This document shows positions 3,773 to 54,318 of a stretch of DNA of 54,765 nt, one piece after another (positions within the stretch are counted from its first letter, which is position 1; every line of letters begins with the position of its first letter). The position numbers and the translations under genes are program-made. The stretch comes from an uncultured Candidatus Saccharibacteria bacterium (GTDB taxonomy: Bacteria > Patescibacteriota > Minisyncoccia > Sungbacterales > HO2-52-23), in assembly GCA_964371935.1 (NCBI GenBank), contig CAYJOT010000001.1, positions 50,730 through 105,494 of the forward strand, given 5' to 3'. The notes under the pieces are model-generated. The model did no database searches. It was not told the DNA's origin and was given only the letters and a program-made list of their open reading frames with translations.

Positions 3773-4444
3773 TTAAAAAATAGAACTGACTACCCCCCTA
3801 ATCTCCATCAAAGTCCCTCGTCGTCCTGGCACGGCACCCCGTAGTGCCAGCATTTTATTTTCCGCGTCGACTTTTACGATCTCGACTTTTCGCACCGACA
3901 CACGATCGGCTCCCATGCGGCCGGCCATGCGCATGCCTTTGATCACGCGCTGGGGCCAGGTGGCACCAATGGATCCGGGCTGGCGATGGGCGTGCTTGGT
4001 GCCGTGCGAGGCAGGGGCACCATGAAAGCCGTGGCGTTTTACTACGCCCTGAAATCCTTTGGCTTTTGAAATACCGCTCACGCGTACGCGATCCCCTTCC
4101 TGGAACACCGATGCGTCAATGATTGTGCCGACCTTCATGTCTTCTTGGGGCAGCACATCCGCTGGCGCATCAGTACCCTTCTTTAGTGTGTGCGTTTTTA
4201 CGCGAAATTCCTTTACGTAACGAAAGTTCCCAAGTCCCTTAAAGTGTCCGATCTGCGGTTTTGCGATATTCTTTTGCTTTTTCTCTCCTGCGCCAAGCTG
4301 TACGCTGCAATACCCGTCCTTTTCCATGGTGCGAATCTGAATCACGGTGTTGGGCATAACGGAAATGAAAGTCACCGGGATCACATTGCCGGTTTCGTCA
4401 AAGATTTGCGACATATTCACTTTTTCTCCCAAAAGGCATTTCAT
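3773..4444 (-). CDS. rplC: 50S ribosomal protein L3
   Basis: ORF 3773-4483. The L3-type start MKCLLGEKVNMSQIFDETGNVIPVT is at the internal Met (4444). Confidence 0.93.
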   Translation of the reverse strand: MKCLLGEKVNMSQIFDETGNVIPVTFISVMPNTVIQIRTMEKDGYCSVQLGAGEKKQKNIAKPQIGHFKGLGNFRYVKEFRVKTHTLKKGTDAPADVLPQEDMKVGTIIDASVFQEGDRVRVSGISKAKGFQGVVKRHGFHGAPASHGTKHAHRQPGSIGATWPQRVIKGMRMAGRMGADRVSVRKVEIVKVDAENKMLALRGAVPGRRGTLMEIRGVVSSIF

Positions 4445-18491: not shown

Positions 18492-18520
18492 TTGACAACT
18501 CTCACATAAGGGAATATGCT
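18492..18520 (+). promoter_or_regulatory. Sigma70-type promoter TTGACA-N17-TATGCT
   Basis: Consensus -35 at 18492-18497 and -10 at 18515-18520. No protein gene lies downstream. Confidence 0.45.
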
Positions 18521-18526
18521 CTATGT

Positions 18527-18595
18527 AGATGACGAGTTTGCTATGATCGGTACCGGTTGATTCCCCGAAGAGCCCCGTAAGGGGCTTTTCTTTTT
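18527..18595 (+). ncRNA. Predicted ~69-nt sRNA (locus 1) whose 5' end is antisense to the adjacent tRNA-like anticodon arm
   Basis: It runs from the predicted TSS to the intrinsic terminator AGCCCC-GTAA-GGGGCT + TTTCTTTTT (18571-18595). Nt 18529-18542 are the exact reverse complement of 18657-18670. Confidence 0.4.
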
Positions 18596-18632
18596 ATCTC
18601 AATGCCATGGTAGTATGCGTGTGTGGATACGA

Positions 18633-18703
18633 GGGCCGAGTCCGATCGGCATCGGGAGCAAACTCGTCATTTTGCTTTAGAGGTTCGACTCCCCCTCGGT
18701 CCA
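18633..18703 (+). ncRNA. Aberrant tRNA-like RNA, 8/4 acceptor/T geometry, 8-nt anticodon loop (locus 1)
   Basis: Extended -10 TGgTAGTAT at 18608-18616. Fold: acceptor GGGCCGAG/CTCGGTCC, D arm CCGAT-CGGC-ATCGG, anticodon stem AGCAAA/TTTGCT with loop CUCGUCAU, T arm GAGG-TTCGACT-CCCC (one A.C mismatch), discriminator A. Confidence 0.4.
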
Positions 18704-18708
18704 CGCCT

Positions 18709-18735
18709 AAAAAGCTGCCATAACGGCGGCTTTTT
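18709..18735. terminator. Bidirectional intrinsic terminator (AAAAA-GCTGCC-ATAAC-GGCGGC-TTTTT)
   Basis: The hairpin is flanked by an A-run and a T-run. It overlaps the argH stop and ends the tRNA-like unit. Confidence 0.65.
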
Positions 18736-20044
18736 AGATTTGTTTGAATTTTCTCTGCTGCTTCTGAACTCTTGCCCGATAATACCCAATACTTAAATTC
18801 CCCGGAGCACCCAAACTCTTTTTTGAGGCAATATTTTCCTCCAAGTTTGGTATGTAATCGCGCAGCATGCCCATAGCCGCCTTGTAGGCATCTCTGAATG
18901 GAATATCTTTTTCGAGCACCAATTTGTTGGCAATATCCGCAGCAAAGATGTCTTTATGAATCTTAATCCGTATGTTTTCGCTTTTAGGAGCAAGTCCTTT
19001 GAGGACGATCTTCACCACCTCGAGACTACCCAATATGATCTTTACACTCTCCATGAGCGGTTTCTTGGTGAGCTGTAAATCCCTGTTATATCCGGATAGC
19101 AAATTTTTGTTGATCCCTTTTACCGCAAGTTGGTTTGCGCTTACCACACCCACATTGCCACGTAAAATTTCCATCACGTCCAGGTTGTGCTTATGAGGCA
19201 TGATACTGGATCCTGTTACAAGACTCTCATGTACCACGAAGAAATCAAACTCTTGCGACGTGAATAAAAGCAGGTCATGTGCGAATCTGCCCAGGGTCGA
19301 CATAACTTGCACCAGCGCTTCAAGAAAAAGACTTTCAAACTTGCCCCGTGAATTTTGGCAGTACAAGGCATTGACCTGAATATCCACAAACCCGAGTTCT
19401 TTCGTGGTGAATACCCGGTCGAGCGGAATAGACACGCCGAAACCGGCGGCAGAACCTAATGGGTTTTTATCAAGGTGCTTTGCAACGAGCATCAGATAAT
19501 CCGCATCGTCAAGTAAACTTTCCACAAAACTCAACATATAGTGCCCCGCGCTTGAGAGCATGGCTTGCTGGGTATGCGAATACCCGGGCATGGGAATGTC
19601 TTTGTACTTTTTGGCAAAATCCAAAAAAGCTGCGGCAAGTGTCACGCATTTCTGCGAGATCATCATAAGATTGTGCTTCATATATAACCGCAATGCGACC
19701 AGTACTTGATCATTCCTGCTTCTGCCCGTATGAATTTTTTTTCCAACATCTCCAAGTTTTTGCACGAGATAATTTTCAATAATCGTATGACAGTCCTCGT
19801 CTGCCGGAGTGATTTTTATTTTCCCGGCGTGAAATTCCTTTTCTATCAACTCAAGCGTTTTAAGAATCTTTTTTAGTTCTTGACGAGTAAGGACGCCGAT
19901 TTTGTGCAGTCCTTTTGCATGCGCTCTGCTTGCCTGTATATCAAAAGGCATCAGAATCGCATCGAAAATATAATCCTGCCCTGCGGTGTATTTTTCAATA
20001 ACCGGATTGAGTTCTTGTTTTGATTTTTTCCACAATTTTGTCAT
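18734..20044 (-). CDS. argH: Argininosuccinate lyase
   Basis: Fumarate-lyase family signature SSIMPHKHNLDVME. Start taken at MTKLWKK (20044), just after the argG stop. Confidence 0.92.
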   Translation of the reverse strand: MTKLWKKSKQELNPVIEKYTAGQDYIFDAILMPFDIQASRAHAKGLHKIGVLTRQELKKILKTLELIEKEFHAGKIKITPADEDCHTIIENYLVQKLGDVGKKIHTGRSRNDQVLVALRLYMKHNLMMISQKCVTLAAAFLDFAKKYKDIPMPGYSHTQQAMLSSAGHYMLSFVESLLDDADYLMLVAKHLDKNPLGSAAGFGVSIPLDRVFTTKELGFVDIQVNALYCQNSRGKFESLFLEALVQVMSTLGRFAHDLLLFTSQEFDFFVVHESLVTGSSIMPHKHNLDVMEILRGNVGVVSANQLAVKGINKNLLSGYNRDLQLTKKPLMESVKIILGSLEVVKIVLKGLAPKSENIRIKIHKDIFAADIANKLVLEKDIPFRDAYKAAMGMLRDYIPNLEENIASKKSLGAPGNLSIGYYRARVQKQQRKFKQI

Positions 20045-46748: not shown

Positions 46749-47198
46749 ATGAATGAACTTTCTGTCAACCGCCGGGCGCATTTTGACTACTCAATCCTCG
46801 AGACCTACGAGGCCGGATTGGCGTTGACCGGATTTGAGGCAAAGGCGGCCAAAGCCGGGCGCATGAGTTTGACTGGTGCGTTTGTGGTCACGAGGGACAA
46901 TGAGGCATGGCTGCTCAATGCAACGATCTCGCCGTACCAGCCCAAAAATACACCGCCAAATTACGATCCTGAACAATCGCGCCGGCTTCTTCTGCACCGC
47001 TCGGAAATCAAGGAATTGATTGGGAAAACCAGCCAGAGCGGTTTGACAATTATCCCATTACGGGTGTATACTTCGCACAATCGCGTGAAGATAGTGATCG
47101 GGCTTGCCCGCCACAAAAAGCAGGGTGACAAGCGCGAAACCATCAAAAAACGCGAAGCGCAAAAAGAGATCGGACGCGCATTAAAAAATAGGGGGTGA
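46749..47198 (+). CDS. smpB: SsrA-binding protein SmpB
   Basis: NRRAHFDYSILETYEAG ... GLTIIPLRVY is SmpB-like. tmRNA lies immediately downstream. Confidence 0.95.
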   Translation: MNELSVNRRAHFDYSILETYEAGLALTGFEAKAAKAGRMSLTGAFVVTRDNEAWLLNATISPYQPKNTPPNYDPEQSRRLLLHRSEIKELIGKTSQSGLTIIPLRVYTSHNRVKIVIGLARHKKQGDKRETIKKREAQKEIGRALKNRG

Positions 47199-47561
47199 CG
47201 GGATTCGACGGATTTTTGAACGCACAAAATCAGGTTGGAGACGCGCGGTTTCTCCATAAACCGTCCGCGCAACACATAAGTGCAAACTTATTGACGAAAG
47301 CACGAGATTCGCTCGTAGCCATTTTTGGCAACAGCGCTCTTGCTCCCGCATACGCCTAAGTAATTAGGCGCGTGCCATCGGCCTCTTGACGCTCGTAGGA
47401 GAGATCACCGGTGTCATACATCGAGCTTGGCGATTCCGATTGTTCGATACGAATCGCGACATTATCGGACAAACCCGTTGAGCCGCAAGGCAAGACAAAA
47501 CCTGTACATAAGTTTTTTGCCGGAAAAAGTTCGGACACCGGTTCAACTCCGGTCATCTCCA
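47191..47561 (+). ncRNA. ssrA: tmRNA (SsrA), about 371 nt, no encoded CCA
   Basis: 5' GGGGGTGACGGGATTCGACGG. 3' T arm CCGG-TTCAACT-CCGG plus acceptor TCATCTCC-A pairing with the 5' end. Candidate tag ORF GCA AAC ... GCT CTT GCT CCC GCA TAC GCC TAA. Confidence 0.85.
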
Positions 47562-47665
47562 TCGCGTCAAACGCGATTTATCGCGGTGGACGAGATGAGC
47601 CACGTCTGATCGCGTCTGACGCGACTGACGTGGCCACTCGTACCACAATATACAATAATATAAGC

Positions 47666-47941
47666 GTGTTTTATGTCTATATTTTATTTTCAAAAAAGGA
47701 TCATGGTCTTTATATCGGCTTTACTAAAGATTTAAAGCAAAGGTTCAAGCAACACACTGCGGGTCAAGTGCGATCTACAAAATACAGGAATCCGCTCCTT
47801 TTAATTCATTACGAAAGTTTCTTATTAAAAGAGGACGCGACTGCACGAGAAGAATATCTCAAAAGTGGGTACGGTAGAGAACAGTTGAAGTCACAACTCA
47901 AACAACTTTTTATGAAACTCAAAGTAAGGTGGCTAAAATAA
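47666..47941 (+). CDS. GIY-YIG nuclease-family small protein (GTG start)
   Basis: (M)FYVYILFSKKDHGLYIGFTKDLKQRFKQH ... AREEYLK is GIY-YIG. The upstream part of ORF 47411-47941 overlaps tmRNA and is discarded. Confidence 0.75.
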   Translation: MFYVYILFSKKDHGLYIGFTKDLKQRFKQHTAGQVRSTKYRNPLLLIHYESFLLKEDATAREEYLKSGYGREQLKSQLKQLFMKLKVRWLK

Positions 47942-48445: not shown

Positions 48446-48936
48446 ATGTCCCTCCATCGGAAAAAGTATCAGAATGCCATTTTGTACTTGTGCCAGCAGT
48501 TGAAGGGCGAAGTGCGGGGCAAGAAAAAGCTGGCGAAATTGCTGTATTTCGCGGATTTTGATTTTTATGAAAAATATCAGAAATCTATTACGGGCGATGT
48601 GTATCGCGCCCTTCCTATGGGGCCTGTGCCAAGCGCGTTAGAAGAGATCACCGAAGAGATGAGAAAGAAAAAAACACTTGCTATTGAGCATATTGAGGAA
48701 CATAAGGGATATAATCCGACAGAAGTATTTCGTTGTATAGCAGAGCCGGATGTGTCCGTCTTTGATGTAAAAGAAAAAAGATGCTCGATAGGGTCGTTCT
48801 CAAATACGGAAACCTGACGGGCAAACAGCTGGAAGAATTGTCTCATGCGGAGGCGCCCTATACTGCCGCACAGCCATACCAAGAAGTGCCGTATGAGTTT
48901 ACGTATTATCGCGGCACGGATTTCAGCGACTTATGA
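48446..48936 (+). pseudogene. Panacea/DUF4065 (SocA-like) antitoxin-domain gene split by a frameshift in an A-run near 48771-48780
   Basis: The N-terminal part KLAKLLYFADFDFYEKYQKSITGDVYRALPMGPVP (ORF 48446-48817) continues in another frame as MLDRVVLKYGNLTGKQLEELSHAEAPY... (48781-48936). Confidence 0.6.
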
Positions 48937-52839: not shown

Positions 52840-53913
52840 TCAATTTATGAGCATCTTTTGTCTTCTTTTTGCCTTCTTCTTATACACCACATGCAGCGGG
52901 AAAAATTCGTGATAGCTTTTCTCGTCAAACCACGCGCACTTAAAATTGTAGAGTTTCAAGCCGGTAAGCCGCGAGAGCGCGAGCGCGTAGAACGTGAGCT
53001 GGTTGATCGGCTGCTCTTTTTTGGCAGCTGGCTTATAATCTAAAATGTGTATAGCGCCGTTGCGCACCTGCACGATATCAATGTGGCCAGTCAGCGTTTT
53101 TTCCAGCGTAAGCGGAATCGTAAACCCCAAGACGCTTTTCATGTGATCCAGATCCTCGGGCGTGAAGTAGATCGGCACCTCCACCGCGACCGTTACCGAG
53201 TCGTTGGCGAGCATAAATCGCTCCAGCGCCTCGTGCCGCTCTTTGTTGTTTTGCACGGCCTGCAATGCCAGCCCAGCAAGACGGTTTGCAAAATTATGCT
53301 TTTCGCGGATCATGACGCGCTCCATATCAAACTTCGCTTTTACTTCGGACGCGCGTACCCCCTCGCGAAAGTACTGATGCGGACACTCTACGGACACGTT
53401 GTCCAAAAATTCCTTGAGCCGGTACAGAGGCTCGTTTTTAAAGTCCTCTTCAAGCAATAATTCCAGTTTAGCAGGATGGTAGCGAAATGTATACACCTGG
53501 CGGTGGTAGAGGGTAGCGGACACCAGGGTCTGCTGGGGCGTATACAGGCGCATGGCATACTCGCGCATCCGCCGATAGGTGCACAGTTCGCGATATTCTT
53601 CGATCCACTGCCCCACCGTGGACGGGGCCACCGCAAGCCCGTATTTGGCTTTGAGAAGCTTGCATGAATTTTCCATGGAGTAGCCAAGATTGTAGTAGGA
53701 CATGCCGTCGAAGATCACGCGGAGCGGAAAGCTTTTCCCTTTCACCATCTGCGGCGTAAATACTTTTTTGCAGTCCGCGCAATACCACAGCTGCACGATC
53801 TCCATTTTTTTCTCGCGCCGCCCCTTTTTCACGATAGCACTCCCGCTGCAATACGGGCATTTTCCCTGAACGGAGCCGATGATGGATTTTTTTGGTTTTG
53901 TCATGCGTGGCAT
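52840..53913 (-). CDS. Zinc-ribbon + HTH (IS1 InsA-like) N-terminus fused to a PD-(D/E)XK (RecB/Cas4-like) nuclease domain
   Basis: CPYCSGSAIVKKG...WYCADCKKVF, then an HTH-like segment APSTVGQWIEEY. C-terminus: E..P...GHIDIV...ILDYKP...QLTFYALAL (D, D/ExK and QxxxY motifs). Confidence 0.6.
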   Translation of the reverse strand: MPRMTKPKKSIIGSVQGKCPYCSGSAIVKKGRREKKMEIVQLWYCADCKKVFTPQMVKGKSFPLRVIFDGMSYYNLGYSMENSCKLLKAKYGLAVAPSTVGQWIEEYRELCTYRRMREYAMRLYTPQQTLVSATLYHRQVYTFRYHPAKLELLLEEDFKNEPLYRLKEFLDNVSVECPHQYFREGVRASEVKAKFDMERVMIREKHNFANRLAGLALQAVQNNKERHEALERFMLANDSVTVAVEVPIYFTPEDLDHMKSVLGFTIPLTLEKTLTGHIDIVQVRNGAIHILDYKPAAKKEQPINQLTFYALALSRLTGLKLYNFKCAWFDEKSYHEFFPLHVVYKKKAKRRQKMLIN

Positions 53914-53931: not shown

Positions 53932-53959
53932 TTGACAGATTCTCTTGTTTTGCTATACT
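53932..53959 (+). promoter_or_regulatory. Strong sigma70-type promoter TTGACA-N16-TGcTATACT
   Basis: Consensus -35 at 53932-53937 and extended -10 at 53951-53959. It is divergent from the nuclease gene. Confidence 0.5.
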
Positions 53960-53965
53960 AATATT

Positions 53966-54046
53966 GTTTATCAGGCCGCGGCTCCATTTCGATGGAATCG
54001 AATCATCAATAACAATCTCGACAATCTCGGGGTTGTTATTGTTTTT
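53966..54046 (+). ncRNA. Predicted ~81-nt sRNA (locus 2) whose 5' end is antisense to the adjacent tRNA-like anticodon loop
   Basis: It runs from the predicted TSS to a 15-bp terminator hairpin (54007-54041) plus TTTTT. Nt 53968-53975 (TTATCAGG) are complementary to CCTGATAA at 54111-54118, with 2 more pairs after one mismatch. Confidence 0.4.
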
Positions 54047-54060
54047 ATGAGCGGTATAAT
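54033..54060 (+). promoter_or_regulatory. Promoter TTGTTA-N16-TATAAT for the tRNA-like RNA
   Basis: A perfect -10 at 54055-54060 lies 20 nt upstream of the cloverleaf start. The -35 lies in the preceding terminator arm. Confidence 0.45.
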
Positions 54061-54079
54061 AAAAGCGCGGAGCGGTATT

Positions 54080-54167
54080 GGAGGGTATTGTCGCACGGTT
54101 GCGACCACGACCTGATAATTCGCTGATTCGGTTCATATCGAATGGAGTTCGACTCTCCTGCCCCCCG
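54080..54167 (+). ncRNA. Sec/allo-tRNA-like cloverleaf (8-bp acceptor, 6-bp D stem with 4-nt loop, long variable arm, 4-bp T stem), anticodon-loop sequence CUGAUAA
   Basis: Acceptor GGAGGGTA/TGCCCCCC (one A.C, one G.U), D arm GTCGCA-CGGT-TGCGAC, weak anticodon stem, V arm ATTCG-N8-CGAAT, T arm GGAG-TTCGACT-CTCC, discriminator G. Confidence 0.45.
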
Positions 54168-54176
54168 TGTCAAAGG

Positions 54177-54202
54177 GTCTCGGCTATGCGCCGGGACTTT
54201 TT
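54177..54202 (+). terminator. Intrinsic terminator after the tRNA-like RNA
   Basis: GTCTCGG-CTATGCG-CCGGGAC followed by TTTTT. Confidence 0.6.
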
Positions 54203-54246
54203 GATTTTCGATTTTGAATTCATTAGTCATTTTTACTTCTCATCTT

Positions 54247-54318
54247 ATGTCACGGGTTTTGGTTACTAAATGTCACGGATATACTCAAAAATGGGGGGTA
54301 TCATTGTATTCGTGACAT
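54247..54318. repeat. Three copies of ATGTCACG(G): two direct, one inverted
   Basis: Copies at 54247-54255, 54270-54278, and the reverse complement at 54311-54318. Confidence 0.6.

Follow-up and report, generated by a model that had tools for sequence, protein, structure and literature searches.

A tRNA-like gene with an isoleucine anticodon loop and its covarying antisense small RNA in a Sungbacteria contig

In this work we analysed a stretch of 54,765 nucleotides from contig CAYJOT010000001.1 of an uncultured bacterium (assembly GCA_964371935.1), called the window below, which PolX homologues place in Candidatus Sungbacteria (Parcubacteria, in the candidate phyla radiation, CPR). At positions 53932-54215 (locus 2) it carries two transcription units in tandem on the plus strand, both equipped with a promoter and a terminator of their own: the first encodes a small RNA (sRNA) of about 80 nt, and the second an RNA of 88 nt that folds as a tRNA cloverleaf with the anticodon GAU. 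The two RNAs are very probably a real cognate pair of tRNA and antisense sRNA. Comparison of homologous loci establishes the fold of the tRNA-like RNA, the two helices by which the sRNA would pair with it, the covariation of these helices, the action of the sRNA in trans and the variable genomic location of the pair. We further propose that the tRNA-like RNA is an allo-tRNA-class tRNA of serine identity, which would misread isoleucine codons and would be silenced by its antisense RNA, much as a toxin is by its antitoxin; taken as a whole, this statement falls just short of being probable.

Results and discussion

Structure of the tRNA-like RNA and its homologues

The cloverleaf at 54080-54167 is the minimum free energy (MFE) structure given by RNAfold, with an energy z-score of only -1.46. 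It consists of an acceptor of 8 bp with a single A3.C70 mismatch, a 2-nt linker, a 6-bp D stem with a CGGU loop, a weak anticodon stem carrying the loop CUGAUAA, a variable (V) arm of 7 bp, a 4-bp T stem with UUCGACU, and the discriminator G73.

Metagenome sequences were scanned with a pattern made of the loop motifs only (CGGT-N12-CTGATAA-N25-33-GTTCGACTC). This gave 38 loci, of which 16 are clear homologues, with a GGAG or GGAA start, equal arm lengths and a UCCGC end; the other 22 are either unrelated to the family or plain class-II tRNAs, of which several lie in tRNA arrays. The cloverleaf statistics are based on an alignment (A3) of 13 distinct sequences, which are 42-94% identical and related to one another. 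For the 8/4 cloverleaf, 95.4% of cells are standard pairs, against 37-48% for slid partners, and 25 of the 29 pairs have compensatory changes on both sides; none of the shuffles reached any of the observed measures. Conservation of the fold in relatives, which the sequence-only reading of this DNA had named as a test of its proposal, is therefore clear. The acceptor (8 bp, 97% of cells paired, 5 covarying pairs), the T stem (4 bp, 100% paired, 3 covarying pairs), the D stem (all 6 pairs covary, with a loop of CGGU or CGGC) and the V-arm stem (6-7 bp throughout, 98.6% paired) are all well maintained. Invariant features include G1-C72, G2-C71, G73, the GG of the D loop and the T-loop sequence UUCGACU, and A3-U70 is found in 12 of the 13 sequences, the window copy being the sole family member with a 3-70 mismatch.

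Programs for finding tRNAs recognise this RNA at reduced stringency. With default settings, ARAGORN called only tRNA-Pro and tmRNA in the window and missed 54080-54167. At its 95% threshold it called exactly 54080-54167, as tRNA-Ile(gat), and this setting added only one other gene in the window, at 18633-18704 (locus 1, discussed below); 20 shuffled windows gave 1 match in total at the same threshold. Some family members are called tRNA-Ile(gat) by default, and others are missed. In an Rfam scan of 111 nt, the tRNA-Sec model RF01852 matched with 40.5 bits (E 2e-7), its gathering score being 47, and the homologue L022 scored 43.1 bits on the same model. The covariance model test that had been proposed for the window thus sees a Sec-type tRNA. 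At gathering thresholds Rfam reported nothing for the cloverleaf region, the general tRNA model RF00005 had no match to the cloverleaf, and no family member reached the gathering score of any Rfam family. A scan of 601 nt by E-value had returned no tRNA-family match at all, which the 111-nt scan revealed to be an artefact of the speed filter. A model built from the family (R1) gives its members 80-98 bits, including 90.8 bits for the window copy, which is one of its training members. It also found a second unit in L052, missed by the pattern since its D loop is CGGC. The genes of L019 and of the two L052 units include the CCA.

Protein matches named two hosts, Sungbacteria and Staskawiczbacteria, both of them Parcubacteria. 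Judged by gene content and GC, most of the other loci look CPR-like; the GC of one contig is 66%.

Pairing between the sRNA and the tRNA-like RNA

In the window, the 14 nt at 53968-53981 are 86% complementary to 54105-54118, and the 24 nt at 53982-54005 are 71% complementary to 54124-54147. The best duplex between sRNA and tRNA-like RNA has a predicted energy of -37.3 kcal/mol, which beats 1000 out of 1000 dinucleotide shuffles of either partner. A cognate sRNA is present in every homologue with enough flank. Its first conserved element, UUAUCAG, lies 102-111 nt upstream of the 5' end of the tRNA-like RNA in 13 of the 16 homologues (112 nt in the window) and begins 0-2 nt past the predicted start of a promoter of the TTGACA/TATACT type, TG-extended in most units. 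The same element is found within 200 nt upstream of the match in none of the 22 non-family loci.

The first intermolecular helix (helix A) joins nucleotides 1-13 of the sRNA to the anticodon loop and to the six stem bases 5' of it, making 13 bp. Across 12 sequences it is 95.5% paired, where slid controls give 24-46% and none of 500 shuffles reaches the observed score, and there are compensatory changes at all six variable positions (22 cells). The second (helix B) joins sRNA nucleotides from about 14 to 22 to the four 5' bases of the T stem and to five 3' bases of the V arm, making 9 bp; in 8 distinct sequences, with registers chosen by hand (offsets 13-16), it is 95.8% paired, with 5 covarying pairs. 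The sequence-only reading had noticed both an antisense match to the anticodon loop and 5' stem and a second patch complementary to the V arm and T stem, and both turn out to be conserved and covarying. It had also singled out a GC palindrome, GCCGCGGC, next to the antisense block; this is simply part of the extended antisense helix, the homologues have no palindrome there, and a role for it is unsupported.

In the alignment of the sRNAs (A4), the conserved parts are the 5' UUAUCAG, G13 and the terminator, whose pairs covary across the family; otherwise there is no conserved sequence outside the pairing segments. The 5' end is available for pairing: about 11 nt are unpaired in the MFE structure of the window sRNA, and 10-12 nt in most of the predicted folds, and the heterodimer is favoured by 3-18 kcal/mol. 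The sRNA strand of helix B (53982-53990) doubles as the 5' strand of the first hairpin of the sRNA itself. Helices A and B are not colinear; the complex would be similar to two-site antisense complexes, and would open the anticodon stem, the V arm and the T stem.

Action in trans and cognate specificity

In most units the sRNA gene is directly upstream of the tRNA-like gene. In L036 and in L019 (the contig of 66% GC) it is downstream, with its own promoter-like sequence and a matching antisense of 12-14 nt. The two tandem units of L052 differ in their anticodon stems, and the match of each sRNA is confined to its own unit. The swapped gene order and the tandem units therefore exclude a purely cis-acting leader, and on the strength of gene order and pairing specificity the sRNA acts in trans. 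Cross-combined duplexes between the sRNAs and tRNA-like RNAs of loci 1 and 2 of the window lie at the shuffle mean.

A second locus in the window

Locus 1 has the same layout as locus 2, as the sequence-only reading had proposed: a promoter, two terminators, and an sRNA whose 5' end is antisense to an anticodon arm. Its tRNA-like RNA has 72 nt and a 7/5 architecture, and the anticodon loop, CUCGUCAU, is of 8 nt. The sRNA begins with 14 nt (18529-18543) that are perfectly antisense to the anticodon arm at 18658-18672, and the duplex, at -42.2 kcal/mol, beats 1000 out of 1000 shuffles. This hints at sister modules with other anticodon loops. In the two relatives looked at, there was no counterpart of locus 1 next to argH. 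The idea that locus 1 is the remnant of an integration site at tRNA-Pro was discarded, the adjacent gene being a PilT-type ATPase and not an integrase.

A generic scan of about 740 kb of gathered sequence, for any element bearing a T loop with a 12-nt antisense nearby, recovered the family and locus 1, and no further anticodon types. An anticodon-agnostic scan of viral contigs gave only phage tRNA-Ser-like genes, none of them with a partner sRNA; a single 8-mer match (L071) is probably due to chance. BLAST of loci 1 and 2 against a phage database gave only terminator-like matches.

It is worth adding that class-II tRNAs with the anticodon GAU were also seen elsewhere. Viral contigs carry 7/5 genes of this kind in tRNA arrays (L017 1655-1741 and L018 4756-4842), of which there are identical copies on metagenome contigs (L017, L018, L020, L031 and L049 are the class-II GAU loci listed), and a second group is found in high-GC tRNA clusters (L023, L027, L030, L043 and L047 are also listed). 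Neither group has an antisense partner nearby. These tRNAs could be misreaders of isoleucine codons too, or unusual tRNA-Ile genes.

A proposed mechanism

We propose the following mechanism. One gene would encode a tRNA of the allo-tRNA or Sec/Ser class, whose anticodon GAU would read the isoleucine codons AUC and AUU, and the other a dedicated trans-acting sRNA, expressed from a near-consensus promoter. The single-stranded 5' end of the sRNA would pair with the anticodon loop and then invade the 5' strand of the anticodon stem (13 bp), and the next segment would pair with the 3' strand of the V arm and the 5' strand of the T stem (9 bp). Together the two helices would hide the anticodon, needed for decoding, and unfold the V arm and T arm, which are read by seryl-tRNA synthetase (SerRS).

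For recognition, SerRS relies on the long V arm and the acceptor end and not on the anticodon. Given these rules, the long V arm, the invariant acceptor pairs and G73 indicate that the RNA is probably serine-accepting; it would then insert serine at AUC and AUU codons, with toxic results. The closeness of its scaffold to that of phage tRNA-Ser(GCU) genes also speaks for a serine identity. A yeast tRNA-Ser given a GAU anticodon does insert serine at these codons and is "extremely toxic", and it is rescued by extra tRNA-Ile(GAU) (PMC6125640). A further precedent is that some allo-tRNA(UAU) variants killed E. coli (PMC5389517). If the tRNA is toxic, the sRNA would be its antidote, transcribed strongly but labile, and the tRNA would be stable. 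The near-consensus promoter of the sRNA, and the weaker one of the tRNA, in which only the -10 is conserved, fit an antidote produced in excess, as do the mutually exclusive paralogues and the patchy and shifting locations described below. We therefore favour an all-RNA module resembling toxin-antitoxin systems, of the addiction or abortive-infection kind. A more specific version, in which the pair is a natural all-RNA toxin-antitoxin or abortive-infection module, the toxin being a serine-charged 8/4 tRNA that misreads isoleucine codons throughout the proteome and is kept inactive by a short-lived sRNA that unfolds it, and the module being mobile among the CPR and at least one high-GC lineage, seems possible to us, with more doubt than confidence.

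Several points weigh against the proposal. The half-lives of the two RNAs are assumed. The anticodon stem, modelled with four inner pairs and, beyond a one-base bulge, an outer C-G, is the weakest helix of the cloverleaf, at 83% paired, and the pair that closes the anticodon loop is mismatched in 7 of the 13 members; both features may impair decoding. The search pattern fixed CTGATAA, so that the invariance of GAU is partly built in and other anticodons fall outside the sampling. The choice of registers inflates the paired fraction of helix B, although not its compensatory pattern. In the window, 11 of the 13 positions of helix A pair, leaving two mismatches, and these together with A3.C70 suggest that the window copy may be partly decayed. 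Finally, many units lie among housekeeping genes, with no defence context.

Alternative explanations

The alternative that survives best, although we consider it unlikely, is that of a regulated working tRNA. This would be a non-toxic decoder of AUC and AUU, either auxiliary or principal, charged by isoleucyl-tRNA synthetase (IleRS) by virtue of its isoleucine anticodon loop, with the sRNA tuning its availability, for example to throttle translation in dormancy or symbiosis; in a variant of this idea, a seryl-tRNA would be used outside ribosomal translation. It accounts well for the loop CUGAUAA, which is invariant and is exactly the canonical tRNA-Ile(GAU) loop, for the several members recognised as tRNA-Ile by ARAGORN at default settings, for the many units located between core genes, for the encoded CCA of L019 and both L052 units, and for the invariant D-loop GG and T-loop UUCGACU, which fit an L-shaped tRNA. 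However, bacterial tRNA-Ile has A73, and IleRS identity expects C-G at position 4-69, whereas here G73 is invariant and position 4-69 is G-C or A-U. A working tRNA is also hard to reconcile with the absence of the unit from equivalent sites in close relatives, with the tandem L052 paralogues and their mutually exclusive sRNA specificities, and with the acceptor-stem mismatch of the window copy.

Somewhat less likely again is a decoy or sponge, in which the sRNA is the effector, acting on the anticodon loop of the cellular tRNA-Ile(GAU) or on an mRNA, and the tRNA-like RNA titrates it. Comparable cases are the 3'ETS-leuZ sponge or, with the roles exchanged, an RNA toxin by which a tRNA is sequestered. 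Any canonical tRNA-Ile(GAU) loop could indeed be paired by the invariant 7-nt seed, the stronger promoter is that of the sRNA, and the pairing is thermodynamically favourable. Against this, covariation with partner-specific stems extends over positions 8-13 of the sRNA and all of helix B, so selection acts on the cognate pair; moreover, a mere decoy would need neither invariant Ser-type acceptor pairs and G73 nor the elbow contacts between D loop and T loop.

A cis-acting leader is disfavoured and very improbable. In this view the sRNA would be an attenuator of the T-box kind, sensing the tRNA so as to control read-through into the tRNA-like gene. Several features are as expected of a leader: in most loci the sRNA stands immediately before the tRNA-like gene, on the same strand; it has a terminator at its end and a codon-like AUC within its 5' end; and the full-length transcript folds with z = -7.0. 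But L036 and L019 have the two genes in the opposite order, a separate -10 is conserved before the tRNA-like gene, and there is no match to the T-box or any other Rfam family.

A decayed tRNA or selC pseudogene, or the remnant of an integration site, with chance complementarity, would suit the tRNA scores below threshold, the acceptor mismatch of the window copy and the accessory nature of the region, but it is refuted for the family by strong covariation of the five cloverleaf helices and both intermolecular helices across sequences 42-94% identical, by the conserved promoters and terminators, and by the lack of an integrase nearby (the gene beside tRNA-Pro, near locus 1, being that of the PilT-type ATPase).

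Genomic context and mobility

Four loci from three Sungbacteria relatives with PolX 77-81% identical have a gene for an MFS transporter in place of the IVP gene, the nuclease and the RNA units. Because these are absent near PolX in the relatives, the locus is accessory. Elsewhere the units occupy a variety of sites: just downstream of rpoB and before rpoC (L022 and L055), downstream of rpoC (L041/L044), and near fusA, uppS or rnhB. In Staskawiczbacteria RIFOXYD2_FULL_37_9 (L037/L045/L050) the unit lies within a gap of about 760 nt between ftsA and ftsZ. In four relatives whose FtsZ is 79-86% identical, ftsA and ftsZ are 4-8 nt apart and there is no match to R1; by this comparison, the unit is a lineage-specific insertion. 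The modules of L055 and L037 are 89% identical at different sites (rpoB-rpoC vs ftsA-ftsZ). Those of L022 and L055 share a site, and their RpoB proteins are 92% identical, yet the modules are only 70% identical. This pattern points to turnover of the module or to its horizontal transfer. On the evidence of location, the module is accessory and probably mobile.

The neighbours include a HEPN/MNT toxin-antitoxin pair (L022), a GIY-YIG nuclease (L041) and, in the window, a PD-(D/E)XK nuclease, and no protein partner is conserved across the family loci. The sequence-only reading had drawn attention to this last neighbour. The adjoining open reading frame (ORF), 52840-53913 on the minus strand, does encode a PD-(D/E)XK protein (357 aa, Pfam PDDEXK_1), but the adjacency is not conserved and a functional link is unsupported. 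Ten loci with homologues of the nuclease (L001-L010) have no R1 match; BLAST and inspection by eye found no similar RNA upstream of the homologue in L001-L009, L010 being only a partial match. The adjacency is incidental. In the family loci, the neighbours that are annotated or recognisable by sequence are unrelated to the PD-(D/E)XK protein. A recurring 12-nt match to locus 1 proved to be the coding sequence of a GNVGIGT protein repeat. In L003 (860-1420), the PD-(D/E)XK/zinc-ribbon homologue stands directly behind a Hint/intein-like segment that ends a surface protein with GNVGIGT repeats; this arrangement suggests that members of the nuclease family can serve as homing modules or as C-terminal modules that are released.

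In the ftsA-ftsZ insertion of L045, directly past the module (reverse-complemented, about 3800-3960), there is a promoter-like TTGACT-N17-TGTTAATAT, then about 120 nt and a strong terminator, which by its signals may be a further small RNA gene.

Layout of the locus

The coordinates of the features are collected in Table 1. The promoters (11/12 and 10/12 consensus matches), the terminator hairpins (15 and 16 pairs) and the cloverleaf were all located where the sequence-only reading had put them. The units are flanked by the PD-(D/E)XK/zinc-ribbon ORF and by a small convergent ORF. In 12 of 13 homologous units, TTGAC(A/T) and a TAnnnT -10, mostly TG-extended, are found before the sRNA at the same distance as in the window. 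The -35 of the tRNA-like gene falls inside the terminator tail of the sRNA, and its -10 is conserved in the family alignment, as a TG-extended TATAAT in most homologues. In the homologues, a terminator is found at the equivalent place behind the tRNA-like gene.

Table 1. Positions of the features of loci 2 and 1 in the window.
Feature	Position	Strand	Remarks
sRNA promoter TTGACA-N16-TATACT, TG-extended	53932-53959	+	11/12 consensus matches
Antisense sRNA, about 80 nt	53966-54046	+	Start inferred from promoter geometry; end is the terminator T run
sRNA strand of helix A, UUAUCAGGCCGCG	53968-53980	+	Antisense to anticodon loop and 5' strand of anticodon stem
sRNA strand of helix B, CUCCAUUUC	53982-53990	+	Antisense to T-stem 5' strand and V-arm 3' strand
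Intrinsic terminator of sRNA	54007-54046	+	Hairpin 54007-54041, 15 pairs, then TTTTT
tRNA-like gene promoter TTGTTA-N16-TATAAT	54033-54060	+	10/12 consensus matches
Leader motif GCGGAG	54067-54072	+	In homologues, complementary to the CUCCGC 3' end of the tRNA-like RNA
8/4 cloverleaf, 88 nt	54080-54167	+	RNAfold minimum-energy structure; 90.8 bits on family model R1
Helix A target: anticodon-stem 5' strand and anticodon loop	54106-54118	+	
Helix B target: V-arm 3' strand and T-stem 5' strand	54139-54147	+	
tRNA-like gene terminator	54169-54215	+	Hairpin 54169-54205, 16 pairs, then T run
Locus 1	18492-18737		Promoter 18492-18520; terminators 18567-18590 and 18707-18737

A leader motif, GCGGAG (GGCGG in some units), is present 2-8 nt upstream of the 5' end of the tRNA-like RNA in the window, L022, L025, L026, L034, L037, L041, L048, L052 and L055. 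Its complementarity to the 3' end amounts to 6-10 bp in 10 units and covaries (GGCGG/CCGCC in L026, L048 and L052); in the window it is weakened by two substitutions. This suggests a helix between leader and 3' end that would be an alternative to the acceptor stem, and would compete with it, in the primary transcript.

Other features of the window may be mentioned. The convergent spacer downstream of the unit holds two copies of ATGTCACGG (54247 and 54270) and, inverted, TATTCGTGACAT (54307-54318). The tmRNA gene (47191-47561) shares its 3' third with a GIY-YIG-domain ORF at 47411-47941, and a further ORF, at 48446-48817, has a SocA/Panacea antitoxin domain.

Significance

Allo-tRNAs have been a structural curiosity without a settled role, and a co-evolving antisense partner would supply a testable reason for their existence; it would also account for the reported link of allo-tRNAs to toxin-antitoxin loci. 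A bacterial sRNA with the body of a tRNA as its conserved target would be a new regulatory relationship. If the tRNA is a serine-inserting decoder of isoleucine codons, then the pair would be a natural switch for proteome-wide mistranslation, of relevance to addiction modules, to defence against phages and to the evolvability of the genetic code. In practical terms, the pair could provide compact on/off control for engineered suppressor tRNAs. For annotation, some pipelines will label these genes as tRNA-Ile, and so miscount the tRNA sets of the CPR.

Comparison with known systems

The closest known RNAs are the allo-tRNAs, which have a 12-bp acceptor/T branch split 8/4 or 9/3, and were reported from Clostridia, Proteobacteria and Acidobacteria, frequent locations being variable regions and the vicinity of toxin-antitoxin loci (Mukai et al., 2017; PMC5389517). 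The most abundant group has the isoleucine anticodon UAU and is apparently unused in translation, and two allo-tRNA(UAU) variants were lethal in E. coli (PMC5389517). The assignment made in the sequence-only reading agrees with that description: the RNA has the 12-bp branch split 8/4, a Sec-like 6-bp D stem with a tetraloop, a long V arm, G73 and a non-Ser anticodon, and it is a near-miss of the tRNA-Sec model, as in the recovery of the allo-tRNAs (PMC5389517). It differs in its anticodon, GAU, in the frequent mismatch of the pair that closes the anticodon loop, and in its hosts, which here are Parcubacteria where named and look CPR-like for most of the other loci, with one contig of 66% GC. 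Allo-tRNAs have a lengthened 6-bp anticodon stem; in the family, the five modelled pairs are 83% paired, and the further position beside the loop is mismatched in 7 of 13 members. The foremost difference is that every unit with enough flank has a cognate antisense sRNA gene. Antisense partners are unmentioned by Mukai et al., and the word "antisense" is absent from their paper (PMC5389517); our literature searches found no bacterial sRNA with the body of a tRNA as its conserved target, and no such pair of tRNA and antisense RNA. The module is thus built on the scaffold of a known RNA class, with a regulatory partner that we have not found described.

The tRNA-Sec gene (selC, RF01852) is similar in its GGAG/GGAA...UCCGC acceptor, its CGGU D loop on a 6-bp stem, its long V arm and its T arm, GGUUCGACUCC. 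The family differs from it in having GAU and not UCA, 8/4 and not 8/5, and scores of 40.5-43.1 bits, short of the gathering score (47); the window showed no Sec machinery. With the canonical tRNA-Ile(GAU) it shares the anticodon loop CUGAUAA, but it is 8/4 and not 7/5, has a V arm of 18 nt in place of a short loop, and has G73 and not A73.

Phage tRNA-Ser(GCU) genes have a similar acceptor scaffold, GGAG...CUCCGC (for example GGAGAGUA...UGCUCUCCGC), and a loop that is one base off (CUGCUAA vs CUGAUAA); they form the group called 8/4 tRNA-Ser by Mukai et al. (PMC5389517). They differ in scoring 48-67 bits on R1, against 80-98 for the family, in having a less regular D arm, and in lying in tRNA arrays. 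Apart from one likely chance match, these genes have no antisense 8-mer within 400 nt.

T-box leaders also read an anticodon by base pairing, and the 5' end of the sRNA contains an AUC codon. However, the pairing described here (13 + 9 bp) would unfold the tRNA, and the sRNA works in trans, with no coding gene behind it; Stem I and a T-box sequence are both lacking, and the T-box model RF00230 had no match at E<=10.

Finally, the module invites comparison with antisense and RNA-only toxin-antitoxin pairs, such as CopA/CopT, the type I system hok/sok and the type VIII system CreTA. In control of this kind, a strongly transcribed small RNA uses a single-stranded seed to hit a YUNR/U-turn loop, and the helix then extends. 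The differences are that the target is a mature tRNA-shaped RNA and not an mRNA, that both genes are on the same strand without overlap, and that no protein is involved. The likeness lies in the attack of a seed on a loop, in cognate pairs with mutually exclusive specificities, and in a compact module that changes sites; and, as in type I and type VIII systems, a cognate antisense RNA pairs with its target RNA, here by two covarying intermolecular helices.

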